Part shown: piece after piece, positions 693-14,917 of the stretch
How positions within the stretch are numbered: the stretch's first letter is position 1
Layout of the letters: each line of letters starts with the position of its first letter
From: Oceanispirochaeta sp.
GTDB taxonomy: Bacteria > Spirochaetota > Spirochaetia > DSM-2461
Assembly: GCA_963666275.2 (NCBI GenBank)
Contig: CAXXOA010000001.1
Coordinates: 704,001 to 768,000 of the forward strand
Reading direction: 5' to 3'
Length of the DNA: 64,000 nt
Position numbers and translations under genes: made by a program
Notes under the pieces: model-generated
What the model saw: only the letters and a program-made list of their open reading frames with translations
Database searches by the model: none
Told to the model about the DNA's origin: nothing

Positions 693-741
693 AAAAAAAG
701 AGGCTGTCGCATTTTTACTTTTGCAACAGCCCCTTTTTTTT
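693..741. terminator. Hairpin AAAAAAAGAGGCTGTCGCA...TGCAACAGCCCCTTTTTTTT; probable IS right end doubling as an intrinsic terminator
   Basis: Inverted repeat flanked by A and T tracts. The two mismatches become G.U pairs on the minus strand. It abuts the stop codon of 740..2011. Confidence 0.65.
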
Positions 742-2011
742 ACTGATCCAGAGGGATCGGATCCCCTTCGTTTTTGTACATACCTTTAAATTCAACATAA
801 TCTGCTGTGGAAAAAGTACTATCATTTACAGCGATATTAAAATAACAAGGTTCGTAGGGAAGGTCAGACCAGGCTAGATATTTATTAAATCTTAATTCCA
901 GAAACCCATCACCCGCACCACCGGTGTGTCCGCTACTATCTTGAGATGCATTGTAATTGACTTGAAAAGTACTTGTTAACCAGTCAGAACCATCATATTC
1001 CGCGTAAAAATTGTGTGAATAGGCTCCATTTTCCTGATCTACGTAAATATCAACGGAAGTTATGGCTCCTATGGAGCCGGAATCATAAAAAGTCAGCAGA
1101 AAGTAGATATAATCATCGTCTTGTTTTATATACACTTTATCAATGTCAGTATTGACTTCTCCAGAGTTATCGTCAGTCAAGACGAAATCCTGATACCAGT
1201 AGCCATATTCTTCCCATGCGGTTATATCAGCCAATGAATTATCATCACATGTGGGGGTTATTCCTCTGTAAAACTGCACAATAGGAGAGTCCATGCTCGG
1301 TTGGGTATCAGAAGAGCTTTTCAGGAGAATATTGAACGTATTTTCATCATTGGAATTATCTATATTCCCATCACCATACAGATTTTCATGATACTGGTAC
1401 CACGAACCAATATGAAAATTCATTCCTGAATCAGATGGTATATAGTTCCAATACGTTGCCTTGGATATCCCAAGCTCAATTGCATTTTCAGATTCATTAA
1501 TCCCTGCAAACCTGATTCCTGCATTATTCAGATCGTAATCTCCCGTGTCATCATAATACCTTGACCAGAAACCAATTGTTCCGTCACTTGTTATTCCGCC
1601 ATCTGGAGAATTGTGGGTTAAATTGAAAAGATTTATCCCATAATTTGATTCATTCAGATCAAAACTAACACTTATACTGGGTTCTGTTAAAGGATTTCCA
1701 TTATAGGATTCAATAAAAAAATAGAGAGTATCATTATCCTGAGCAGCTTTTAACTGGTACAGGTCTCCCCCTGCTATCATGGGGTAGCCGTTCTGAGCTG
1801 TATCTGAAGAGTCATCTGTATACAGAGGCTCTACGTTATCCCAATCCAACAGATCGCCGTCAATAGCAATATCATCCCTGTATTCCAGAGTAATCCCATC
1901 CTGGCCAGTCGGGTCATAGGGGTTGTCGAATACCATATCTTCATACATAAAGCATGCGGATAATAGAAGAGCGGCTCCTGCTGTAATGAAAAAAAGGCCC
2001 GTTTTTCTCAT
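740..2011 (-). CDS. Lipoprotein with two repeated DOMON/CBM9-like domains
   Basis: Lipobox LLLSAC; IAIDGDLLDW motif; internal repeat DLYQLKAAQDNDTLYFFI / DIDKVYIKQDDDYIYFLL; acidic and aromatic-rich. Confidence 0.6.
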   Translation of the reverse strand: MRKTGLFFITAGAALLLSACFMYEDMVFDNPYDPTGQDGITLEYRDDIAIDGDLLDWDNVEPLYTDDSSDTAQNGYPMIAGGDLYQLKAAQDNDTLYFFIESYNGNPLTEPSISVSFDLNESNYGINLFNLTHNSPDGGITSDGTIGFWSRYYDDTGDYDLNNAGIRFAGINESENAIELGISKATYWNYIPSDSGMNFHIGSWYQYHENLYGDGNIDNSNDENTFNILLKSSSDTQPSMDSPIVQFYRGITPTCDDNSLADITAWEEYGYWYQDFVLTDDNSGEVNTDIDKVYIKQDDDYIYFLLTFYDSGSIGAITSVDIYVDQENGAYSHNFYAEYDGSDWLTSTFQVNYNASQDSSGHTGGAGDGFLELRFNKYLAWSDLPYEPCYFNIAVNDSTFSTADYVEFKGMYKNEGDPIPLDQ

Positions 2012-2271: not shown

Positions 2272-3153
2272 ATGGACCAACTGGATCAATTAGAAAGCAT
2301 CGGCATAAGAATCCTCCGGGAAGCTTATGCGAATTTTAAAAACCTGTGCATGCTCTGGTCAATCGGCAAGGACAGCACGGTTCTGTTATGGCTTGCCCGT
2401 AAAGCTTTTTACGGGCATGTTCCCTTTCCTCTGGTACACATCGACACACACTACAAGATTCCCGAAATGATCGAGTACAGAGACCGGCTGACCCGGGAAT
2501 GGAAACTGCCCATGGTCTACGGGGAGAACTCCGAAGCCCTGGCGGCCCATCAGACCTTTCCCGAAGGCAATGTGGACAGACTGACCTGCTGCCGCCTCCT
2601 GAAGGCCGAAGCCCTGAAGAATACCCTGAACGGAAGCTGGAAGCGTTACCGGTTCAATCATTCCACCGACCAGTATGAACTGGACAAGGATACGGAAATG
2701 TACACCGGAGTCATCGTGGGTGTACGGGCCGACGAAGAGGGGTCCCGTTCCAAGGAACGCTACTTCAGCCCCCGGGACAAGGAGAATATCTGGGACGTGG
2801 GAGATCAGCCCCCCGAGTTCTGGAACCAGTTTAAAACTGATTTTGCTCCGGGAACCCATGTGAGGATTCATCCTCTCCTGGACTGGACCGAGCTGAATAT
2901 CTGGGAGTACATCGAACGGGAGCAGATTCCCACGGTCTCCCTCTACTACGATCAGGGTTCAGGTCAGCGCTACCGTTCCCTGGGATGCGGTCCCTGTACC
3001 AATCCTGTGGAATCCACCGCAAAAAATGTGGGGGATATCATCACCGAGCTGAAAACAGGCAAGTTCGCCCATATCGCCGAGCGGTCCGGTAGGGCCCAGG
3101 ACAAGGATGACGGAGGCGGACTGGAAACTCTCAGAAGGGACGGGTACATGTGA
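2272..3153 (+). CDS. cysD: Sulfate adenylyltransferase subunit 2
   Basis: [12 protein letters not shown]-loop, [39 protein letters not shown]-terminal RRDGYM. Confidence 0.95.
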
Positions 3154-4961
3154 TGAGCAGAGATCAGATGAATATCGTCTTTACAGGACATGTGGACCAT
3201 GGCAAGAGTACGGTGGTCGGACGCCTTCTGGCCGATACGGACTCCCTTCCCGAAGGAAAGCTGGAACAGGTCAAACGGGAGTGTGAGCGCAACTCCAAAC
3301 CCTTCGAATACGCCTTTCTGCTGGATGCCCTGAAAGATGAGCAGTCCCAGGGCATCACCATCGATTCGGCCCGTGTCTTTTTCAATACTGAAAAGCGCGA
3401 CTACATCATCATCGACGCACCGGGTCATATCGAGTTTCTGAAAAATATGATAACCGGGGCAGCCCGGGCGGAAGCGGCTTTTCTTGTGATTGACGCCGAT
3501 GAGGGGGTTCAGGAAAACTCACGGCGCCACGGATACCTCCTCTCCATGCTGGGGATCCGTCAGCTCTGTGTCCTTGTCAATAAAATGGACCTGGTAGGTT
3601 ACAACAGGCAGGTCTATAACAAAATTGTGCGGAAGTACTCCCGGTTTCTGAAAAATATCAATCTCACCGATGTCAACTTCATTCCCGTCAGCGGCCGGGA
3701 AGGGGACAATATCTTCCACAGGGGCGGGAACATGCCCTGGTGGGAGGGCGGTACCGTTCTGGAGCTGCTGGATGCGTTTAAAAAAGAAAAACCTCTGGAC
3801 GATCTTCCCATGAGGATGCCTGTGACGGATATCTACAAGTTCACCAACTATGATGATTCCAGAAGGATCATTGCGGGGACTGTGGAAACCGGTAAATTCA
3901 AGCCGGGAGATGAGTTGATCTTCTATCCCTCCGGAAAGAAAAGTAAAATCAGAACAGTAGAAAGCTTCAATGCGGAAGTTCCTGCGGCTGTGACTGCCGG
4001 AATGGCTACAGGTGTCACTCTGGAGGAGCAGATCTATCTCTCCCGGGGGGCCGTGGCCTGCCGTTCCGACCAGCTGCCTCCCAAAGTGGGGAGCTATCTG
4101 AAAACAAGCCTTTTCTGGCTGGGCAAAGAGCCCCTTGTCAAAGGGAAAGAGTACATGCTGAAAAACGGAACCTCCAAGGTCCGGGCTCAGCTGGCCGAAA
4201 TTACCCGAGTCATCGATGCCTCCTCTCTGGATACGGAAAACACCCAGGAGCAGGTCAACAGGCATGAAGTGGCCGAATGTGTGTTCAGTCTCCAGAAAGC
4301 CATTGCCTTCGATCTGGTGGAGGAACTGCCCCAGACCAGCCGGTTTGTTCTCGTGGACGGGTATGAAATCGCCGGAGGAGGAATTATCCGTGACGTTCAT
4401 GACCACGGGCAGACCGAATACGGCGAGCAGTTGATCCGAAGAACCCTGGAGTGGGAAAACGGTATCGTCACCGAACTGGACAGGATGCAGACCTATGGTC
4501 AGAGACCCGCGCTGATCCTTGTCTCGGGTGAGCTGAACGGCGGAAAGAAAGCCTTTGCGGAAAAGCTTGAAAAGGAGCTCTTTTCCCTGGGAAAAAAGGT
4601 CTACTATCTGGGATACAAGAGCATCAAATTCGGACTGGACTCGGACCTCAGGGACGGCCGGGCCGAACGGCGTCAGCAGGCTGCCCGGGAAGAGCATATC
4701 CGCAGGATTGCCGAGATCGCCCATATCATGCTGGATGCGGGGCTCTTTTTTATAGTTAAAATCGATAATCTGACCTACGAGGAGAGGGATCTTATTCAGC
4801 TCCTCATGGGATCCTCCCGCCTGAAAACTGTCTGGGTGGGAGAAAAAATAGCGACGGACATTCAGCCTGACTGGCATGTAAAACGGCCTCTTGCTGTGGA
4901 CGAACATATGAAAGAAGTTCAGCAGATTCTGGTGGACTGGGAACTGGTGGAGGTACGTTGA
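3153..4961 (+). CDS. cysN: Sulfate adenylyltransferase subunit 1 (GTPase) fused to a degenerate APS-kinase-like domain
   Basis: [20 protein letters not shown] and NKMD motifs. C-terminal CysC-like domain with an altered P-loop ([10 protein letters not shown]). TGATG overlap with cysD. Confidence 0.9.
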
Positions 4962-6253
4962 TGAAGCAGTTCGAACCGACAAAATATAAAGTGCAGGCCC
5001 TTTGCTGCGGAAAAGTCTTCAGTGATCAGGGGCAGCCCCTGTCCTGTCCCGACTGCTCGGATCCGCATTTTCTGAGGGCTGATTATGAGAAGAAACAGCT
5101 GGACGTCAAAGAGGATGCCCTGGGGCTCTACAGATTCAGTGACTGGCTCCCTGTGGAAAAGACCCTGGAAGGCTCGGGAGCGCCTGTGACCTTCAGGAGC
5201 GAAAAACTGGCCGGGAAACTGGGCCTGAGCAATCTGTGGATCACCTTTAACGGCTGGTGGCCCGAAAAAGGCGCCTTTATGAAAACAGGAACCTTCAAAG
5301 AGTGCGAAGCCTACTCGGTCTGTGCCAGAATTCCAAAAGGAAAAAAGGGCATTCTGGTCGTGGCTTCCGCGGGAAATACAGCCAGGGCATTTGCCCGGGT
5401 GTGCTCTGAAAACAACATTCCCCTGGTCATCACCATCCCCGAAGACAATCTGGGTGCCATGTGGTCGGACAAACCTCTGGCGGACTGTGTCAAAATCATT
5501 GCCGCCTCCTCGGGGTCGGACTACTTCGATGCCATCGATCTGTCGAACAAAATCTGTCAGGGCGAAGATTTCTTTCCCGAAGGGGGCGCGAAAAACATAG
5601 CCCGGAGAGACGGAATGGGAACAACGGTCCTTTCCGCTGTGACAGCCATCGGTGAGATTCCCGACTACTATTTTCAGGCTGTCGGGAGCGGTACAGGCGC
5701 TATCGCCGCCTGGGAAGCCAATCTGAGATTCCTGAAAGACGGAAGGTTCGGCAATAAAAAGATGAAACTGATGGTCTCCCAGAATGCCCCGTTCAAAATT
5801 ATCTATGACTCCTGGAGGGCCGACAGCAGAGCCCTGGTGGCTCTGGATGATGATGAAGCCAGGCAGCAGGTGATTGCCATGAACGCCAAGGTGCTTTCCA
5901 ACCGGAAACCTCCCTATTCTTTGCCGAACGGTCTTTACGATGCCCTCAAGGATACAGGGGGAGATGTCCTTTTGGCGGACAATGAGGAAGCTGCCGAAGC
6001 GGGGCGCCTTTTCAGGGAGACCGAAGGAAATGATATCTCACCGGCTGCCTCGGTTGCCTTGGCATCTTTGATAAAAGCTGTTAACAATGATACGGTGAAG
6101 GCCGGCGAAACGGTGATGCTCAACATAACCGGAGGCGGCATGGGGCGATTTGCCTCTGAAAATACAGTAACAATTGCCAAAGCGGACCTTGTGTTTTCTC
6201 CCCGGGTGGATACACAGGAGCTGATAGAAGCGGTAAGAGATTTATTTAAATAA
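4961..6253 (+). CDS. Cysteate synthase (threonine-synthase-like PLP enzyme, Methanosarcinales type)
   Basis: TGTFKECEA (PLP Lys), VASAGNTARAF, EGGAKNIARRDGMGT, YFQAVGSGTGAIAAWEA, VLSNRKPPY; N-terminal Cys pairs. TGATG overlap with cysN. Confidence 0.85.
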   Translation: MKQFEPTKYKVQALCCGKVFSDQGQPLSCPDCSDPHFLRADYEKKQLDVKEDALGLYRFSDWLPVEKTLEGSGAPVTFRSEKLAGKLGLSNLWITFNGWWPEKGAFMKTGTFKECEAYSVCARIPKGKKGILVVASAGNTARAFARVCSENNIPLVITIPEDNLGAMWSDKPLADCVKIIAASSGSDYFDAIDLSNKICQGEDFFPEGGAKNIARRDGMGTTVLSAVTAIGEIPDYYFQAVGSGTGAIAAWEANLRFLKDGRFGNKKMKLMVSQNAPFKIIYDSWRADSRALVALDDDEARQQVIAMNAKVLSNRKPPYSLPNGLYDALKDTGGDVLLADNEEAAEAGRLFRETEGNDISPAASVALASLIKAVNNDTVKAGETVMLNITGGGMGRFASENTVTIAKADLVFSPRVDTQELIEAVRDLFK

Positions 6254-6293
6254 AAAGGTTTATTCAAACAACTCGATTAAGTAGGAGAAAACT

Positions 6294-7580
6294 ATGAGTG
6301 TAGATATTTTTGACAAGTGTAAAACAGACGGTGGATATTTCGGTAAATACAGAGCCGCCGGCGATAGAGACCTGACACGGCCCACCATGGATCCGATCCC
6401 CGGGAAAACCATGCAGTACAAGGGAGAAGAGTACGTGATGTGGTCTGTGAACAACTACATCGGACTGGCTGAAAACCAGGAAGTCAAAGCCGCTGCGGCC
6501 GAGGCTCTTGCGTCTTTCGGAACAAGTGCTCCCATGGGTTCCAGGATGATGAGCGGTAATACCCAGCACCATCAGGACCTTGAAAAACGCCTGGCTGATT
6601 TTTCCCAGAAAGAAGCGGCCTATCTGTTTAACTACGGCTATATGGGTGTTCTCGGTATTGTTTCTTCCCTCTGCGGCCCCAAAGATACGGTTGTGGTGGA
6701 CAAACTGGCTCATGCGTGTATCCTCGATGCCGCCGCCATGGCAAAAGCCGCAGGAGCGACTATCCGCTATTTTAAACACAACAATATGGAAGATCTGGAA
6801 AAGGTTCTTCAGAGTGTGAATAAAGGCAGGGAAGGGGGCGTCATGATCCTCATCGAGGGGGTTTACGGTATGACCGGAGACCTGGCTGACCTCCCCGGAA
6901 TCTGCGAACTGAAAGAAAAATACAACGCCCGCCTTTTCATCGATGATGCCCATGGTATCGGAGTTATGGGAGAAACAGGCCGCGGTACCGGCGACTTCTT
7001 CGGTGTTCAGGACAAGATCGATATCTACTTCGGAACCTTCGCCAAGGCTTTCGCGTCCATCGGCGGTTACTGTGCGGCCGATCAGGATGTGATCGACTGG
7101 ATTGCCTACAATGCCCGGACGCAGGTCTTTGCCAAGAGCCTCCCCATGGTCTATGTGAAAGCTCTGGACAGAACTCTGGACTTTGTGATTGAGGGAAATG
7201 ACAGGCGTCAGAAAATGTGGGACAACTCCCATAAACTGAGAGACGGACTGAGGGAACTGGGGTACTACATCGGCCCCGGTGAATCTCCCATCTGTTCCGT
7301 TTTTACCCCCACCGGGAGCGATGATCCCAACGGCATGGGTGTGAGAATGGTAAAATTCCTGAGAGAGAACAACATCTTTGTCACAGCTGTTGTCTATCCT
7401 GTTATTCCTCCCGGGCTGTGTATGTTCAGAATGATCCCCACCACATCCCATACAGATGCGGAAATCAACAGAACCATTGAGGTATTTGCCAGGATGAAAG
7501 AGGCCCTGGAGCTGGCAGACTCGGTCACCGATGACGATATCAGCAAGATTAAAAGAGTCTACAGGGAAAGAAAATCCTGA
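6294..7580 (+). CDS. PLP-dependent alpha-oxoamine synthase, SulA/CapB-like cysteate:acyl C-acyltransferase
   Basis: WSVNNYIGL, APMGSRMMSG, HACILD, EGVYGMTGD, DDAHG, GTFAK251, QVFAK281SLP. Lies directly after the cysteate synthase; SD AGGAG. Confidence 0.8.
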   Translation: MSVDIFDKCKTDGGYFGKYRAAGDRDLTRPTMDPIPGKTMQYKGEEYVMWSVNNYIGLAENQEVKAAAAEALASFGTSAPMGSRMMSGNTQHHQDLEKRLADFSQKEAAYLFNYGYMGVLGIVSSLCGPKDTVVVDKLAHACILDAAAMAKAAGATIRYFKHNNMEDLEKVLQSVNKGREGGVMILIEGVYGMTGDLADLPGICELKEKYNARLFIDDAHGIGVMGETGRGTGDFFGVQDKIDIYFGTFAKAFASIGGYCAADQDVIDWIAYNARTQVFAKSLPMVYVKALDRTLDFVIEGNDRRQKMWDNSHKLRDGLRELGYYIGPGESPICSVFTPTGSDDPNGMGVRMVKFLRENNIFVTAVVYPVIPPGLCMFRMIPTTSHTDAEINRTIEVFARMKEALELADSVTDDDISKIKRVYRERKS

Positions 7581-8287
7581 TGCAGAAAGATCTGGTTGCA
7601 CAGTATCAGAAAGAACTGGCCGGCGCTTCCCCCGGGGAGGTCCTGGCCTGGGCTCACAATACCTTTGATCTTTCCGGGATTGCCCTGTCCAACAGTCTGG
7701 GGCTGGAAGATATGGTCCTGACCGACATGCTTATGAAGATTGACCGGAATTTTCCGGTGTTCACCCTGGATACGGGGCGCCTCTTTCAGGAGACCTATGA
7801 TCTCATGGAAGAAGCCCGTACCCGGTGGAAGCTGTCTATGAAGGTTCTGTTTCCCGATCGGGAAGAAGTGGAGAGTCTGATGGTCCGGAAGGGCCCCAAC
7901 TCGTTCTACTACAGTCTGGATAACCGGAAAGAGTGCTGCCGGATCAGAAAGATCGAACCCCTGAAAAAAGAGCTGTCTACTCTGGATGCCTGGATCACCG
8001 GGCTCAGAAGAGAACAGTCTGTCACAAGGAATGAAGTTCAGTGCGTGGAATGGGATGAAGCCTTCGGTCTGATAAAGATCAATCCCCTTGTGGACTGGAG
8101 CGAAAAACAGTGCTGGGATTATGTAAAAGAGCATCATGTCCCGGTTCACAGTCTCCATAAAAAAGGCTTCCCCTCTATAGGCTGTGCTCCCTGTACCCGG
8201 GCTGTGAAACCCGGAGAAGATATCCGGGCCGGCCGCTGGTGGTGGGAAAATCCTGAAAGCAAAGAGTGCGGACTGCACAGAAAATAG
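7580..8287 (+). CDS. cysH: Thioredoxin-dependent APS reductase (Fe-S type CysH)
   Basis: LDTGRLF, ECCRIRK (CC), SIGCAPCT (CxxC), RAGRWWWE, KECGLH. TGATG overlap with the upstream gene. Confidence 0.93.
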   Translation: MQKDLVAQYQKELAGASPGEVLAWAHNTFDLSGIALSNSLGLEDMVLTDMLMKIDRNFPVFTLDTGRLFQETYDLMEEARTRWKLSMKVLFPDREEVESLMVRKGPNSFYYSLDNRKECCRIRKIEPLKKELSTLDAWITGLRREQSVTRNEVQCVEWDEAFGLIKINPLVDWSEKQCWDYVKEHHVPVHSLHKKGFPSIGCAPCTRAVKPGEDIRAGRWWWENPESKECGLHRK

Positions 8288-8307
8288 ATTTATCCGTTCC
8301 CCAGTAC

Positions 8308-8338
8308 AGGGACAGTTCTCAGGAACTGTCCCTTTTTT
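8308..8338 (+). terminator. Intrinsic terminator of the cys/sulfonolipid operon
   Basis: AGGGACAGTTC-TCAG-GAACTGTCCCT followed by a T tract. Confidence 0.85.
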
Positions 8339-9986
8339 AATGGAAAGGAGGGAGGAGCGACACTCTTCCGCTGTTTACCGCATCCTTGAAGGTTTCATAA
8401 ATATCCTGCTCAGCCAGGATTTCAAGAATTCCTGACTTCTCCAATGTTTCCCTGACATCATGGTTCAGTCCGGAAAGAAGAACTTTGATCCCCCTTTTTC
8501 TGAGAAAGCGCAGAGCATCAAACAGGGCTTTCTGACCGGTCTGATCAATAAAGGACACATGACGCATCCTTATGATAATAGCCCTGTTTGTGATTCCCAC
8601 TTCCTTCACAACCTCCGCATACTGTCTGGCCGAGGCAAAAAACAGAGGGCCGCTGATCTCATAAATACCAAGATCAGAAGGCAGATCGGAATAGTCCTCG
8701 ATCACATCGGTATCCACAATATGATCGATCCTCTTTTCTGCGAACTCGGACATACGGATCATAAACAGAAGGCTGGAGAGCACAATCCCTATCTCTATGG
8801 CAGCAACGAGATCGACGACAACTGTCAGGATAAATGTAACCAGGAGAACAATCCTGTCGTTCCTGTTGCTTCTCAGAATGGCCGCAAAAGACCGCCATTC
8901 ACTCATATTGTAAGCCACTATAATCAGGATTCCCGCCAGACAGGGCATGGGTATGTAGGAGGCAAAGCGGCCGAAGAAAAGCATAATGCACAGAAGGGTA
9001 ACAGAGTGAGTCATTCCGGCAATAGGAGTGCGACCTCCGTTTTTGACATTCGTAGCGGTTCTGGCAATTGCACCGGTTGCGGGGATTCCTCCGAACAGAG
9101 GGGTCACAATATTGGCAATTCCCTGGGCTATCATTTCAGTGTTGGATCGGTGATTTCCGCTGATCATACCGTCTGAAACCGTGGCGGAGAGCAGGGATTC
9201 AATGCCTCCCAGAAGGGCGAGAACCAGTCCCGACTGGAGGTAGAAGGGAATATCCGAATGAACGAATCCCGGTATGGTCAGGGAGATACCCCGGGGAATC
9301 TCTCCGAAAAGAGATCCGATCGTTGACACGGGTATGTCAAGGAGCCTGACAACCAGGCTCACAAGGAGGATGGCTATAAACGACCCGGGGATCCTTTTAA
9401 AGACCCTTCCCGAAAGTAGGACAATCCCGATGGTCACAGCTGTAACCGCCGGAGCGGCAGGGTTCATATCGGAAAAGGCTCCTCCGTAGGCCTGCCATTT
9501 CTGAAAAAACTCTCCCGGGACCTTATCCAGAGGAAGGCCCAGGGCGTCCTTGACCTGGGTGGTGAATATGACCAGAGCTATCCCGCTGGTAAATCCGACA
9601 ATCAGGGAGTGGGGTATGAATTTCAGAAGTTTGCCCAGTTTCAGAACTCCGAAAAATACAAGTATGATTCCGGCCAGCAGGGTGGAATAGAAAAGCCCCT
9701 GGTATCCTTTGAGCTGAACGATTTCAAATATAAGGATTACAAAAGCCCCGGTGGGGCCGCCAATCTGAACCCGGCTTCCTCCGAGCAGGGCAATAAGAAA
9801 TCCGGCCAGGATTCCTGTGATCAGTCCCCTTTCGGGAGAGACTCCCGAAGCAACAGCAAAGGCTATGGAAAGGGGGAGGGCCACAATGCCCACCACAACG
9901 CCGGCCATAAGATCGCTGAGTATCTGCTGTTTCTCAAACCCGGATCGCAGCAGGGTAAAAAATTTGGGTGTAAACGGGTCTTTCAT
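8337..9986 (-). CDS. SulP/SLC26 anion transporter with STAS domain
   Basis: DLMAGVVVGIVALPLSIAFA, GGSRVQIGGPTGA, GGIPATGAIART; C-terminal STAS domain (GPLFFAS...FIDQTG). Confidence 0.92.
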   Translation of the reverse strand: MKDPFTPKFFTLLRSGFEKQQILSDLMAGVVVGIVALPLSIAFAVASGVSPERGLITGILAGFLIALLGGSRVQIGGPTGAFVILIFEIVQLKGYQGLFYSTLLAGIILVFFGVLKLGKLLKFIPHSLIVGFTSGIALVIFTTQVKDALGLPLDKVPGEFFQKWQAYGGAFSDMNPAAPAVTAVTIGIVLLSGRVFKRIPGSFIAILLVSLVVRLLDIPVSTIGSLFGEIPRGISLTIPGFVHSDIPFYLQSGLVLALLGGIESLLSATVSDGMISGNHRSNTEMIAQGIANIVTPLFGGIPATGAIARTATNVKNGGRTPIAGMTHSVTLLCIMLFFGRFASYIPMPCLAGILIIVAYNMSEWRSFAAILRSNRNDRIVLLVTFILTVVVDLVAAIEIGIVLSSLLFMIRMSEFAEKRIDHIVDTDVIEDYSDLPSDLGIYEISGPLFFASARQYAEVVKEVGITNRAIIIRMRHVSFIDQTGQKALFDALRFLRKRGIKVLLSGLNHDVRETLEKSGILEILAEQDIYETFKDAVNSGRVSLLPPFH

Positions 9987-10271
9987 ATATGCTCCTGATT
10001 ATCTGACAATCTCTTTGTACACCTTCTATTTCTTCCTTTACAATCCCTTCCCCTGATAAAGCAGAGGACGGGAGGATATTTTCTGCGATTTTCTGAGCCC
10101 TCCGGAACCGGCTTCTTCTAGTGTTTTCGTACTATTTTCCCCTTTCCCCCCTTTTCTTATAAGGAAAAACCCGCTATGGTATAGATATTAAAATGACAAA
10201 AATACTTAAAGTGTCAAAATAAAGATTTCCCTCGCACCCAACGGGTCGGGATTTCTGTATCAAAACAGGAG

Positions 10272-13200
10272 ATGGGAATGGATCTACAGACTTTAAGAGA
10301 ATACTTCAAACACATGGTTACCGCCCGTGAAATGGATCTGCTTGAGCAGAGTTACACAGGGCGTGGAGAAGCCTTCTTTCATGTATCCGGAGCAGGGCAT
10401 GAAGGAACCTGTTTTCTGAATGCCGTACTGGGCGAACAGGACTGGCTCCACTGTCACTACAGGGATAAAGCCCTCATGCTGGCGAGAGGCATCGATTCAA
10501 AGATGTTCTTTATGTCCCTTTTCAATAAAGATCAGTCCCATTCCAGGGGACGTCAGATGAATGCCCACATGAGTGATCCTGAGAGAAAGGTCCTCAGCAT
10601 TGTCGGTCCGGTAGGAAACAGCGCACTCCAGGCTGTGGGTGTCGCCGAAGCGGTTAAAGATGAAAAGGACAACCCCGTTGTCCTCTGCGGTCTTGGTGAC
10701 GGAATGAGTCAGCAGGGAGAGGTTCTGGAAGCTGTCGCTCATGCGGTAAGAAAAGAACTTCCTGTACTGTTTTTTATTCAGGATAACAGTTTTGCCATAT
10801 CGACCAAAACAAAAGGGAAAACCTTTTTCTCCCATCCTGAGGGAGATGCGGAAGAATTCTACGGAATCCCCATTGTCCGCATGGACGGACGGTATCCTCA
10901 GAATCTTTATAAACCTATGGAAGAGGTCGTACAGGGAATCCGGGATACCCGGAAACCGGCGATCGTCGTCTTCTCGGTTGACCGTCTTCACAGCCATACC
11001 AATGCGGATGATCACAGGGTCTACAGAACCGAGGAGGAGATTAAAGCTCTTCATAAATCGGGAGATCCCATAGATCAGATGCATGCCTGGCTGCTGGATC
11101 AGGGTGTCGATGAGAAAGAGCTGGAACAGGAGAGAGAGCAGATAGTTGCGGAGCTCAAAGAAAAAGCCCGGGCGGCTCAGATGTCTCCCGAACCGGAACC
11201 CTTTTTCTCTGCGAAAAAAGAAATCCCCCCTCATCTGACAGATCCGAAACAGGAGTACAGAGGAACCCCGGGAAAAGAAGAGCTTACAATGCTGGAAGCG
11301 ATCAGGGAAACCCTCCGTTTTCATCTGGAAAGGAACCCTGCCGTAGAGCTCCTGGGAGAAGATCTGGAAGATCCCAAAGGGGATGTTTTCGGAATTACAA
11401 AAACACTGACACAGGAATTTTCCCGGCGTGTGGAAAACAGCCCTCTTACCGAGTCCACCATTGTGGGGCTTTCTGTAGGAAGGGCTCTGGCTGGAAAACG
11501 TCCTGTCGCATTCCTGCAGTTTGCGGATTTTCTTCCCATTGCGTTTAACCAGCTATGGGCGGAGATGGGCAGTATGTTCTGGAGAACCGACGGCGGCTGG
11601 CAGTGCCCCATGATCGTCATGGTTTCCTGCGGAGGATACAAGCCGGGACTCGGCCCCTTCCATGCCTCCAGTATGGAATCGGTGGCTGCCCATATCCCCG
11701 GAGTCGATGTGGTTATGCCCTCCACCGCAGGGGATGCCGCAGGCCTTCTGAATGCCGCTATGGAGTCGGAAAGGCCTACCATATTCTTCTACCCCAAAGT
11801 CTGTCTGAACGAATCCCTGGGTAAAACCAGTCCCGATGTGTCCAGGCAGCTTGTTCCCCTGGGAGTGGCCAGAAAGCTCAGCGAAGGTGAGCATCTGACC
11901 ATGGTCTCCTACGGGAATACCATCAAGCTCTGCCAGAAAGCGGCGGATGTTCTGAAAAATCAGGGTGTTCACTGTGATATTCTGGACCTGCGATCCATCT
12001 CCCCCTGGGATCAGAAGGCCGTTCTGGAATCTGCTGAAAAAACAGGAAAGCTGATCATTGTCCAGGAGGAGAACGGTACAGCTTCCTTTGCTTCCGAAGT
12101 GGCGGCCTATGTGGCGGAACATGCCGGGACAGCTGTGAAAATCCGCCGTCTTACCAGAGAGGACACATTTGTTCCCTGTAATTTCGATTGTCAGCTGGCT
12201 GTACTGCCTTCCTATCAGAGGATCCTTGAAACAGCTGTTGATCTGTTCGGCGGATCCATCTCCTGGAAGAAGGATGAGTCCGCAGAAGCGGGAATCTTTT
12301 CCGTGGAGATCATCGGAACCAGTCCCGCAGACGAAACTGCCACAGTCATTGAGTGGAAGGTTGAGCCGGGTGACGTTATAGAAGAGGGGGATCTGCTGGC
12401 AGAGATCGAAGCGGATAAAGCCGCAGCGGAAATGAAATCTCCCGTATCCGGTACGGTAGAGGAACTCCTTCTGGATGAGGGAGAAGCTGTTGAGATCGGT
12501 ACTCCCGCACTGAAGGTTAAAACCGGTGAAAATGCGGAAATCTCCCTGAAACCCAAAACAAAAGAAGATCCCGGTGAACCTGTCATTTCAGGGCTTCAGC
12601 TGGAAACTTCATCAACCGACGCGGCACCGGCGGTTTCCGGTGACAGACGCCCCTACCTTGTGGATGTGGCAGGCACCCTGGGAAGCCGGGTTGTAGATAA
12701 CGATGAGATCATGAAGTCCTGTCCCGGATGGGAAGAGGGCGAAATCCTGAAAATGACAGGAATAGAAAAACGCTGCTGGATTGATGAAGGGGAGAATATT
12801 CTTACCCTTTCCCGCACAGCCTCTCAGACTGTGCTCGAAAGAAACGGACTGTCCCTGGACGACCTGAGTCTTATCATCGTTTCAAGCGGCACCCCTGATA
12901 TGATCACCCCCTCCATGGCCACTAGGCTGCAGTATGCGCTGATGCCCGGGGGAAAACGGAAAATGAGCTGTCCCGCTTTTGATATCAACGCCGCCTGTTC
13001 GGGATACCTGTACGGACTGCAGTCCGCCTGGGATTTTCTCAATACCAAGCCCGACGGACTTGTTCTTCTGGTAACAGCGGAAGTCCTTTCTCCTCTGGTG
13101 GATCTGACTGACAAGTCCACTTCCCCCATTTTCGGAGACGGCGCCACAGCCACACTGATAGCCGGTGTCAATCATAAACTGAAAGCACAGGGCAAAGCCC

Positions 13201-13616
13201 GGCTTTTCCGTCCCGTCACAGCTGCTGCCGGAGAACCGGGAGAGATCCTGACCGTTCCCGCCAACCCGGTGGAGCCTATTTTCATGCACGGTCCCAAGGT
13301 TTACCTGGAAGCGGTACAGAGCATGATCGAACTGCTGGGCAGTGCCATGGAACAGGATGGGAAGACTCTGCAGGATGTCTCTCTGATTGTCCCCCATCAG
13401 GCTAACCAGAGGATCATCAATGCAGTACGTCAGAGGCTTAAAATCAGAGAAGAGCAGATCTACAGCGAGATCAGATACAGAGGAAATACATCCTCCTGTA
13501 CGATCCCCCTCTGTCTTGAAACCCTGGTGAATGAGAGAAAATCCGGAGATATTCTGGGTATGACAGCATTCGGCGGCGGATTCACCTCTGCCGGCGGTCT
13601 TCTGGAAATTCTGTAA
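10272..13616 (+). CDS. Fusion protein: 2-oxoacid dehydrogenase E1alpha + E1beta + lipoyl domain + beta-ketoacyl-ACP synthase III (FabH-like)
   Basis: HYRD and GDG...QDN TPP motif; E1beta GEDL..KGDVFG and NSPLTES; lipoyl EADK716A; KASIII triad AAC909SG, PH1042QAN, GN1072TSS, plus FGGG. SD CAGGAG. Confidence 0.9.
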   Translation: MGMDLQTLREYFKHMVTAREMDLLEQSYTGRGEAFFHVSGAGHEGTCFLNAVLGEQDWLHCHYRDKALMLARGIDSKMFFMSLFNKDQSHSRGRQMNAHMSDPERKVLSIVGPVGNSALQAVGVAEAVKDEKDNPVVLCGLGDGMSQQGEVLEAVAHAVRKELPVLFFIQDNSFAISTKTKGKTFFSHPEGDAEEFYGIPIVRMDGRYPQNLYKPMEEVVQGIRDTRKPAIVVFSVDRLHSHTNADDHRVYRTEEEIKALHKSGDPIDQMHAWLLDQGVDEKELEQEREQIVAELKEKARAAQMSPEPEPFFSAKKEIPPHLTDPKQEYRGTPGKEELTMLEAIRETLRFHLERNPAVELLGEDLEDPKGDVFGITKTLTQEFSRRVENSPLTESTIVGLSVGRALAGKRPVAFLQFADFLPIAFNQLWAEMGSMFWRTDGGWQCPMIVMVSCGGYKPGLGPFHASSMESVAAHIPGVDVVMPSTAGDAAGLLNAAMESERPTIFFYPKVCLNESLGKTSPDVSRQLVPLGVARKLSEGEHLTMVSYGNTIKLCQKAADVLKNQGVHCDILDLRSISPWDQKAVLESAEKTGKLIIVQEENGTASFASEVAAYVAEHAGTAVKIRRLTREDTFVPCNFDCQLAVLPSYQRILETAVDLFGGSISWKKDESAEAGIFSVEIIGTSPADETATVIEWKVEPGDVIEEGDLLAEIEADKAAAEMKSPVSGTVEELLLDEGEAVEIGTPALKVKTGENAEISLKPKTKEDPGEPVISGLQLETSSTDAAPAVSGDRRPYLVDVAGTLGSRVVDNDEIMKSCPGWEEGEILKMTGIEKRCWIDEGENILTLSRTASQTVLERNGLSLDDLSLIIVSSGTPDMITPSMATRLQYALMPGGKRKMSCPAFDINAACSGYLYGLQSAWDFLNTKPDGLVLLVTAEVLSPLVDLTDKSTSPIFGDGATATLIAGVNHKLKAQGKARLFRPVTAAAGEPGEILTVPANPVEPIFMHGPKVYLEAVQSMIELLGSAMEQDGKTLQDVSLIVPHQANQRIINAVRQRLKIREEQIYSEIRYRGNTSSCTIPLCLETLVNERKSGDILGMTAFGGGFTSAGGLLEIL

Positions 13617-13672
13617 AGCAGGGAAAAGTTACCATGCTATTCCATTAGTGTTATAAAAGCACTGTGTTAATT

Positions 13673-13712
13673 AGCCCCTTCTACTAAAGTTCTGCCCGGT
13701 AGAAGGGGTTTT
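13673..13712. terminator. Hairpin terminator between convergent genes
   Basis: GCCCCTTCTAC...GTAGAAGGGGTTTT. Confidence 0.6.
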
Positions 13713-13732
13713 GTAATAAAAGCTTGAAGGGA

Positions 13733-14917
13733 TTAATACTGGCCGATATGGATCTGGACTGGCTGGAAATCCTGCAGATCCTCATCTATCATAAAGAATT
13801 TTTTGATCTCAACAGGTACGTTCTGGTTAATGGTTGTGTAATTTCCCAATTCTCCATAGTCGTTTTTTCCAAATCCCCAGAGAGTTCCGTCCTCTTTCAG
13901 AACAATGGTATGGTCTCCTCCGTTATGGCTGATAGCGGAAACGTCATTCATGACTTCTTTGAAGACGGCAGCATTGGTATTTGTACCGTCTCCAAGCTGC
14001 CCCTGATCATTGCGTCCCGTCGTCCATAAGGTTCCATCGATTTTGAGTGCTACGGTGTGAAAACGACCTGTGGAAATATCGACAACATCGGAGAGAACCT
14101 GTTCAAAAGCTAGTCTGTCAGCGGTATCACCCGTTCCTAACTGGCCGTAGGTATTGCCACCCGAGGCCCAGAGGGTGCCGTTTGTTTTCAGGACCATAGA
14201 ATGGGCAGTCCCTGCAGAAACACTTAAGACTCCCGTTATTATTTGAGTAAAATCGGCTATATCAGATGTATCGCCGCTTCCAAGCTGTCCCCGGGAGTTT
14301 CCGCCGCTAACCAGTAGGTCTCCGGAAGTGTCCACCACCAGAGAAAAGTTATTTCCCGTATCCATAGTTTTTACGCTGCTGAGCACTTTTTCCGGTGTTG
14401 CCATACCAGTGGTTGAAGTTGTACTGTTACCAAATTGTCCATCTTTATTCAAACCTGCTGCCCAGAGGGTCCCGTCGTTTTTTAACATAAGAGAAAAATC
14501 AGTTCCTGCAGAGGCTTTTTTGGCATTGTCCATAATTTTAACAGGTGAGGCAACTTTAGCAGAAGCACTTCCTGTTCCCAGTTCGCCTTCCGTGTTGTCT
14601 CCCATCGCCCATAGAGTCTTGTCTGACTTAAGAAGGAAACTGTGATTCTCTCCTGCAAAAATACCAATTACATCCTCCAGTATCTTCTGGTAGTAGTTGT
14701 ATTGGTCGTTTGATAATTTACCAAGCTGACCTTTGTCATTTTTTCCTGTACCGTAAAGGCTACCGTTGCTGTTGAGGAAAAATGAGTGATCCCCTCCGGC
14801 GGACAAAGTTGTATCAATTGATACCTTGTCTCTGTTACTGCTGCTGAACATGCCGTTGTCGCATCCAGACAGTAGCAGTATTAAAATTGTGAATCCTGTG
14901 AAAATAGTTTTTTTCAT
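13733..14917 (-). CDS. RCC1-repeat beta-propeller lipoprotein
   Basis: Lipobox LLLSGC; repeated SAGxxHSxxLKxxGTLWxxGxNxxGQLG units. Confidence 0.9.
   Translation of the reverse strand: MKKTIFTGFTILILLLSGCDNGMFSSSNRDKVSIDTTLSAGGDHSFFLNSNGSLYGTGKNDKGQLGKLSNDQYNYYQKILEDVIGIFAGENHSFLLKSDKTLWAMGDNTEGELGTGSASAKVASPVKIMDNAKKASAGTDFSLMLKNDGTLWAAGLNKDGQFGNSTTSTTGMATPEKVLSSVKTMDTGNNFSLVVDTSGDLLVSGGNSRGQLGSGDTSDIADFTQIITGVLSVSAGTAHSMVLKTNGTLWASGGNTYGQLGTGDTADRLAFEQVLSDVVDISTGRFHTVALKIDGTLWTTGRNDQGQLGDGTNTNAAVFKEVMNDVSAISHNGGDHTIVLKEDGTLWGFGKNDYGELGNYTTINQNVPVEIKKFFMIDEDLQDFQPVQIHIGQY

Follow-up and report, generated by a model that had tools for sequence, protein, structure and literature searches.

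A single-chain E1–lipoyl–ketosynthase III fusion in Oceanispirochaeta: a possible coenzyme A-free entry of 2-oxoacids into fatty-acid synthesis

How does a protein that carries both parts of a 2-oxoacid dehydrogenase E1 and a lipoyl domain, and that ends in a ketosynthase in place of an E2 acyltransferase core, dispose of the acyl group that it would load? The question is raised by a single gene in the stretch of Oceanispirochaeta sp. DNA analysed here (64,000 nucleotides of contig CAXXOA010000001.1, positions 704,001 to 768,000, referred to below as the window). The gene encodes a fusion of E1α, E1β, lipoyl and FabH-type β-ketoacyl-acyl carrier protein (ACP) synthase III (KAS III) domains. 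In Bacillus, Staphylococcus and Listeria, the branched-chain 2-oxoacid dehydrogenase (BCKDH; E1α2β2/E2/E3) feeds FabH via acyl-coenzyme A (acyl-CoA). The fusion shares with this pathway the E1 domains, the lipoyl-lysine, a KAS III of the Cys-His-Asn type and a likely branched 3-ketoacyl-ACP product, but it is a single chain with no E2 core, no E3-binding domain and no clamp for the adenine of CoA, and it presumably bypasses acyl-CoA. As judged from the sequence, E1 would acylate the lipoyl arm of the same chain, from which the acyl group would pass straight to Cys909 and be condensed with malonyl-ACP, a reading to which we assign a probability of about 0.55.

The fusion gene and its family

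The open reading frame runs uninterrupted from ATG to TAA and encodes 1114 amino acids, with six Pfam domains matching above their gathering scores. The features of the gene, all of them on the + strand, are given below together with what identifies them, A1 being an alignment of 69 sequences of the family and AF2 denoting AlphaFold2.

10272..13616, +: the whole fusion gene, E1α-E1β-lipoyl-KAS III, an open frame with six Pfam domains
10311..11201, +: E1α, thiamine diphosphate-binding, residues 14-310 (E1_dh, PF00676, 142.9 bits against a cut-off of 22)
10695-10787, +: thiamine diphosphate motif G142-D143-G144...N172, inside E1α
10995-10997, +: His242, aligned with the second His of the 'GHHSTSDD' segment of human BCKDH E1α
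11280..12188, +: E1β, residues 337-639 (Transket_pyr, PF02779, 337-509, 83.9 bits, cut-off 27; Transketolase_C, PF02780, 531-639, 91.6 bits, cut-off 25.9)
12294..12521, +: lipoyl domain, residues 675-750 (Biotin_lipoyl, PF00364, 690-746, 61.5 bits; β-sandwich at 675-750 in the AF2 model)
12417-12419, +: AAA codon of the lipoyl-lysine K716, in a DKA-type turn
12546..12596, +: short motif L759-L775 on the 3' side of the lipoyl domain, from column conservation in A1
12597..12659, +: Ala/Gly/Ser-rich linker, residues 776-796, variable and flexible
12660..13607, +: KAS III, residues 797-1112 (ACP_syn_III, PF08545, 903-966, 64.8 bits, cut-off 24; ACP_syn_III_C, PF08541, 1027-1112, 87.6 bits, cut-off 26.6)
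12996-12998, 13395-13397 and 13485-13487, +: KAS codons of C909, H1042 and N1072
13410-13412, 12741-12743 and 13113-13115, +: KAS codons of R1047, E824 and K948

The single frame of 1114 residues and the positions of G142-D143-G144...N172, K716, C909, H1042 and N1072 agree with the original prediction, which was made from the letters alone. It had also claimed that the protein has no E2 catalytic domain and that no E2 gene lies nearby. In the fusion, neither the E2 core family 2-oxoacid_dh (PF00198) nor E3_binding (PF02817) gives a match at E ≤ 0.01, the latter being found in the true E2s of the genome and in the variant P0212 discussed below, and the nearest E2 catalytic domains lie at C1:476679 and C2:1088667, while the window corresponds to C1:704001-768000. 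The Pfam matches likewise include no carrier, ketoreductase (KR) or release domain. Of the E1 parts the protein has E1_dh, Transket_pyr, Transketolase_C, the GDG...N motif and the His of the E1α loop. Of an E2 it has the lipoyl domain with its modifiable Lys, and neither the core nor the E3-binding domain; of FabH it has the domains, the triad and the equivalent of Arg249, while falling below the model cut-offs and lacking the adenine clamp. In the full-length AF2 model (mean pLDDT 87.2, pTM 0.67) all domains are confidently folded.

The possibility that such a fusion is an artefact of assembly can be rejected, because the whole architecture is conserved across assemblies. A word-indexed homologue search scored 8000 candidates, of which 1366 had E ≤ 0.001, and 118 of the best 120 (54-90% identity) have all six Pfam domains, the architecture check that had been proposed with the original prediction; the source records of the remaining two mark them as partial. 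The sources named among the matches listed are Spirochaetaceae, Oceanispirochaeta and Alkalispirochaeta, the closest named relatives being metagenome-assembled genomes (MAGs) of Oceanispirochaeta. Public-run contigs (Logan) covering 10000-13800 show 0 differences, with one contig spanning the whole, although the source sample is possibly the same, and the conservation in other assemblies is the stronger proof.

When 401 genomes were sampled evenly across the phylum, 9 had the fusion at full length, the window's own genome among them, and G210 has it as a 1210-aa frame. The copy in a further genome (L048, G332:C1:805000-824900) is interrupted, being recovered as three tblastn pieces with a TGA within the match, which could reflect a pseudogene or a fault of the assembly. 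Outside the phylum, a 43% relative occurs in a Planctomycetia MAG, where the frame is broken in that assembly, and cluster names add one MAG each from Opitutaceae and Francisellaceae. A search with residues 668-1114 through all proteins of a library of 1.84 billion representatives gave 448 matches at E ≤ 1e-30. The best 150 of these were parsed into domains, with 59 having E1, lipoyl and KAS, 13 lipoyl and KAS, one E1 and KAS, and 77 KAS only. Among the 59, 38 span 1087-1942 aa and the other 21 are shorter and start inside E1, being either fragments or E1β-lipoyl-KAS forms. The family is large and spans several phyla. Its members are annotated only as 'TPP-dependent enzyme', 'transketolase' or 'KAS 3'. 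The original prediction knew of no biochemical description of this architecture, and our full-text literature search likewise turned up no publication about a protein of the E1-lipoyl-KAS III type, most subscription journals being outside its scope and the absence hence unproven.

The lipoyl arm, the ketosynthase and the route of the acyl group

The residues G142, G144, N172 and H242 of E1α are invariant in A1, and we take H242 to have a role in the reductive acylation of lipoamide. The stretch E713-A714-D715-K716-A717 of the lipoyl domain is also invariant, making K716 the predicted lipoylation site. The motif that follows at 759-775, in which K760, T763, E765, P767, G768, P770 and I772 are conserved in 91-100% of the sequences, has a pLDDT of about 73-75 and a strand at 769-773 in the AF2 model, and may be a docking peptide. 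The linker behind it shows the opposite pattern, with no column above 64% identity, a length that varies from 18 to 48 residues, and a pLDDT below 50 at 779-789. A lipoyl domain followed by a flexible linker is the layout that one would expect of a swinging domain.

The closest solved relatives of the KAS domain are FabH structures (2ebd, 148 bits; 4ryb, 144; 1zow, 136). We aligned 121 fusion-family sequences to the E. coli FabH (from NC_000913) and to the stand-alone FabH of the window's genome. C909, H1042 and N1072 align with Cys112, His244 and Asn274 of E. coli FabH, and the triad is kept in 119-120 of the 121 sequences. Arg1047 corresponds to E. coli Arg249, which presumably docks the ACP, and is kept in 118 of the 121. 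The fusion KAS thus resembles E. coli FabH (1HND/1HN9) in its fold, its Cys112/His244/Asn274 triad, Arg249, Asn247 and Gly306; it differs in being tethered to a lipoyl domain and in the contacts to CoA, where Thr28, Trp32, Arg36, Arg151 and Asn210 are replaced by G819, E824, M828, K948 and P1008, respectively. In the CoA-bound E. coli enzyme, as described in the accessible part of PMC4606726, the adenine ring is stacked between Trp32 and Arg151, Thr28 bonds the adenine, and Arg36, Asn209 and Asn246 (in that paper's numbering) bond the pantetheine. None of the 121 family sequences has Trp at position 32 (Asp in 94, Glu in 22) or Arg at position 151 (Pro in 61, Ala in 21, Lys in 18), and the stand-alone FabH of the same genome retains both.

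The loss of this pair was counted on cluster representatives at 50% identity, of which 133 of 153 were kept and 20 dropped for incomplete coverage of the KAS domain. No lipoyl-linked KAS (n=64) has both residues, while of the 69 KAS on chains that lack a lipoyl domain 44 have both, two have only the Trp and one only the Arg. In a tree built with FastTree and rooted on E. coli FabH, with SH-like support only, 59 lipoyl-linked rows and 20 lipoyl-less rows missing the pair form one clade (support 96) that contains no member with both residues, and these 20 are among the 25 lipoyl-less KAS that miss at least one of the two. They are probably fragments or split forms. The remaining five lipoyl-linked rows form a second small group (support 92), and so the link between lipoyl domain and KAS may have arisen twice, or the tree is not settled.

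On these grounds the following route can be proposed. E1αβ with thiamine diphosphate would decarboxylate a 2-oxoacid, most likely a branched-chain one such as 2-oxoisocaproate, pyruvate and 2-oxobutyrate being also possible, and E1 would reductively acylate the lipoylated K716 of the same chain. Held between a short tether and the linker of 18-48 residues, the lipoyl domain would swing to KAS III, where the acyl group would move from the S-acyl-dihydrolipoyl straight onto Cys909. His1042 and Asn1072 would then drive the decarboxylative condensation with malonyl-ACP docked at Arg1047, and the 3-ketoacyl-ACP formed would enter type II fatty-acid synthesis (FAS II). The dihydrolipoyl arm would be re-oxidised by free cellular E3, no acyl-CoA being formed at any point. 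The original prediction that KAS III replaces E2 is consistent with the absent core, the intact triad and the lost adenine clamp; the direct transfer from the lipoyl group to Cys909 is a step that we infer.

Two variants of the architecture bear on this route. P0212, a protein of 534 aa from the Opitutaceae MAG (353-kb contig), has a lipoyl domain at 7-79 and an E3_binding domain at 142-176 (30.6 bits, cut-off 23.7), and KAS III comes last. By these matches the protein is laid out like an E2 whose acyltransferase core is exchanged for KAS III. P0148 (1942 aa, 63.6-kb contig, singleton cluster) has the full fusion followed by a KR (203 bits, of the polyketide synthase type), a PP-binding domain (27.6 bits) and a C-terminal tail of about 250 aa that matches no known family. 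A KR and a PP-binding domain placed after the KAS would be fitting if the KAS delivered a carrier-bound 3-ketoacyl thioester. Two smaller proteins, P0176 (450 aa) and P0207 (442 aa), combine a lipoyl domain with a KAS.

Among the systems described, QncN/QncL/QncM is the closest precedent for a lipoyl-borne unit being fed into a carrier-protein pathway. In these proteins and in SclQ1-4, which form glycolicacyl-ACP for tetrahydroisoquinoline and scleric acid, a thiamine diphosphate enzyme loads a lipoyl domain that shares its chain with Transket_pyr and Transketolase_C, and the lipoyl-bound unit goes to a carrier-protein pathway and not to CoA, as in the route proposed for the fusion (PMC6335953, in the part of the text available). 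QncL, however, keeps a domain of the E2 acyltransferase type and a dedicated ACP according to the same text, while the fusion has KAS III instead and no adjacent ACP gene.

This precedent also lends itself to another explanation, in which the KAS III would be a plain acyltransferase that moves the lipoyl-bound acyl group to holo-ACP (or to CoA) without condensation, leaving the elongation to a separate FabH or FabF. The thiolase fold is able to transfer acyl groups via the same Cys, the ACP-docking Arg is retained, the Qnc system shifts its lipoyl-bound unit onto an ACP (same partial source), and a separate KAS III exists in eight of nine carriers. We nevertheless consider this explanation unlikely. 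His1042 and Asn1072, which in FabH serve malonyl decarboxylation, are kept in 119 of 121 sequences, and CoA is an improbable acceptor because of the lost adenine clamp. The genome G345, moreover, has no other KAS III to take up an acyl-ACP, and the KR directly after the KAS in P0148 fits a 3-keto product.

Another reading is that the fusion starts a specialised product, polyketide-like or a 3-hydroxy acid, and not membrane fatty acids. The KR, carrier and tail in cis of P0148 would suit such a function, as would the divergence of the KAS from the FabH models and the normal FabH that most carriers keep. However, six distant loci show no conserved biosynthetic neighbours of the fusion, which is a solitary gene. 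The window's protein (P0001) itself lacks a carrier, a KR and a release domain, and G345, with its FAS II operon, has no KAS III other than the fusion. We regard a specialised product as highly improbable.

Substrate and the other systems of the genome

The scores of the E1 part lean towards branched-chain 2-oxoacids. The best solved relative of E1β is the β-subunit of the T. thermophilus 2-oxo acid dehydrogenase (1um9_B, 185.8 bits), followed by the pyruvate dehydrogenase (PDH) of Geobacillus (171 bits), and E1α scores 121 bits with human BCKDH, 115 with the T. thermophilus enzyme, about 73 with Geobacillus PDH and 70 with human PDH. The major fatty acids given for Oceanispirochaeta strains in the accessible part of PMC11129491 are iso-C13:0, C14:0, iso-C15:0 and C16:0. 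Together, the scores and the iso acids weakly suggest a branched-chain substrate.

The genome of the window (5.27 Mb, 97% complete) contains an aceE-type PDH operon (E1 909 aa, E2 435 aa, E3 470 aa) and a second operon resembling that of BCKDH (BKD-like; L006), with an E2 of 459 aa, an E3 of 445 aa and an E1 of 819 aa in which α and β are fused. The FAS II operon reads fabH-fabD-fabG-fabF-fabZ-fabV, with a FabH of 335 aa, and a lipoate-protein ligase LplA is also encoded (TIGR00545, 424.6 bits against a cut-off of 280). A stand-alone E2 and fabH, which the original prediction had suggested looking for, are therefore both present elsewhere in the genome, and the external E3 that it took to be needed could come from either of two E3 genes. 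Since the genome has the PDH, the BKD-like and the fabH-led FAS II operons as well as LplA, the fusion would be an extra, specialised starter here. The 819-aa E1 resembles the fusion in having E1α and E1β on one chain, but it has no lipoyl or KAS domain and adjoins its E2 and E3, and the two are only 25% identical. With 34% identity between the fusion and the genome's own FabH, a recent fusion of housekeeping genes can be ruled out, and these values indicate an old, separate lineage.

The two E2 and two E3 genes raise the possibility that the fusion only brings together ordinary activities, its E1 and lipoyl parts feeding a separate E2 that makes acyl-CoA, and its KAS acting as a plain FabH. 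The E2 catalytic domains found elsewhere in the genome in all five relatives tested would allow for this. Such a KAS would, however, have to work without the equivalents of Trp32, Arg151, Thr28, Arg36 and Asn210, and the lipoyl domain on its chain would duplicate the one that the E2 has. In addition, the six distant loci show no conserved E2 neighbour, and P0212 exchanges the E2 core itself for KAS III. A mere co-localisation appears very unlikely to us.

The case of G345 (2.2 Mb, 99% complete) is different from that of the window's genome, the fusion being its only match to ACP_syn_III_C. Its FAS II operon is the following.

L056 (G345:C5:1707000-1725000) 7720-12327, - strand: FAS II operon without fabH, with fabD, enoyl reductase, fabG, fabZ, ketosynthase (KS) and ACP

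The KS of this operon scores 290.8 bits, the fabF cut-off being 493.75. A phosphopantetheinyl transferase (ACPS) gene and a gene of the BPL_LplA_LipB family adjoin the operon.

Several observations weigh against the proposed direct transfer to the ketosynthase. The whole chemistry of the route, from the choice of substrate to the passage of the acyl group from lipoyl to Cys and the steps beyond, is one that we infer from sequence. The assignment of the substrate is weak; the best NCBIfam E1α model for the fusion is of the PDH type, with a score under its cut-off, and the genome's BKD-like E1 is as distant as stated above. The KAS (797-1112) is below the NCBIfam FabH cut-offs (NF006829, 234 against 249; TIGR00747, 197.7 against 292.1), and its chemistry may therefore be other than that of classical FabH. 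The loss of Trp32 and Arg151 is not exclusive to lipoyl-linked chains, as 22 of the 69 lipoyl-less KAS lack both, and it is incomplete among the 64 lipoyl-linked ones, two of which keep the Trp and three the Arg. The BKD-like operon and FabH make the fusion dispensable in principle in its own genome, and at least one stand-alone KAS III is kept in all but one of the nine carriers examined. Finally, as the fusion has no E3-binding domain, its arm would have to be re-oxidised by an E3 that is not docked; only one primer is needed per fatty acid, and a slow re-oxidation may therefore be tolerable. Thr879 (E. coli Phe87), which had been considered as a hint at a widened primer pocket, was dropped because 23 of the 69 lipoyl-less KAS also have Thr at this position.

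The sulfur operon upstream and the role of the fusion

Upstream of the fusion, the window contains an operon for sulfur metabolism, from which the fusion is separated by a hairpin and a divergent permease gene. The features on the two sides of the fusion are:

2272-3153, +: cysD
3150-4961, +: cysN/C
4958-6253, +: cysteate synthase (TIGR03844, 469.6 bits against a cut-off of 324.9; PDB 9k3c, 520 bits)
6294-7580, +: AONS-type enzyme resembling cysteate-C-fatty acyltransferase (PDB 28eh, 355.5 bits; 7u7h, 331.9 bits)
7580-8287, +: cysH, APS/PAPS reductase
8308..8333, no strand assigned: hairpin with an 11-bp stem and a T-run, between cysH (+) and sulP (-), from a consensus scan only
8337..9986, -: SulP-family permease with STAS domain (PF00916, 266 bits; PF01740), divergent from the fusion
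13733-14917, -: RCC1-repeat gene, directly downstream of the fusion

The best serine palmitoyltransferase match of the AONS-type enzyme is only 223 bits, and the genes from 2272 to 8287 read as the opening part of a pathway to capnine-type sulfonolipids that has its own supply of sulfite. In the 116-bp gap after the stop codon of the fusion (13616) there is no annotated gene and thus no adjacent ACP gene.

Since capnine has an iso chain, the fusion could have a lineage-specific role in this pathway, priming the iso chain that is joined to cysteate in a base of the capnine type, which would refine the lipoyl-to-ketosynthase route and not replace it. The arrangement of the window, with the operon from cysD to cysH directly upstream, recurs in a relative of 90% identity (L008), and in a relative of 75% identity (L009) cysH and the fusion share a strand, with 250 nt from the one to the start of the other and no sulP between. 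The production of iso-C15:0 by Oceanispirochaeta, as given in the accessible part of PMC11129491, is in agreement with such a role. The link is found, however, in only two of the 11 related loci compared, and both also share the downstream glyoxalase, dus and tatD genes, so that the plain synteny of close kin explains it. In the window itself, the terminator-like hairpin and the divergent sulP stand between operon and fusion. The neighbours are unrelated in the six loci of 49-56% kin, and cysteate synthase is above the cut-off in none of the five more distant carrier genomes, by which the link is rejected as a property of the whole family. Capnine is not reported for Oceanispirochaeta in the part of PMC11129491 available, and the capnine-type sulfonolipids are described as found in Bacteroidetes (PMC9304779, also seen in part). 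The link is local and perhaps only synteny, and we hold a sulfonolipid role of the fusion to be rather unlikely.

Some further features of the neighbourhood can be mentioned. Ankyrin-repeat proteins are encoded beside the PDH operon (L005 10917-12788) and near the fusion in L045, and eukaryote-like repeat proteins (RCC1, ankyrin) recur in these spirochaete genomes. At the start of the window, the open reading frame 740-2011 (-), of 423 aa, has no Pfam or NCBIfam match and has a 48% identical counterpart in L008; the surrounding stretch 1-2000 is low in GC (0.379), the window being usually at 0.44-0.54.

Returning to the direct lipoyl-to-ketosynthase transfer, we see about even odds that a ketosynthase has here supplanted the E2 core and that the lipoyl arm, as acyl donor, fills the role that CoA or a phosphopantetheine arm usually has, giving a CoA-free, channelled entry into fatty-acid synthesis for 2-oxoacids derived from amino acids, which in Oceanispirochaeta may also supply the iso-chains of sulfonolipids. 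If so, it would be a new way of starting fatty-acid chains and would give the lipoyl cofactor a new partner, the transfer from a lipoyl group to a ketosynthase not being found in the literature searched. It would also amount to a one-gene module for making branched- and odd-chain lipids from 2-oxoacids without an acyl-CoA pool, which would be useful for engineering, and it would explain how some bacteria with a fabH-less FAS II operon, such as that of G345, start their synthesis.

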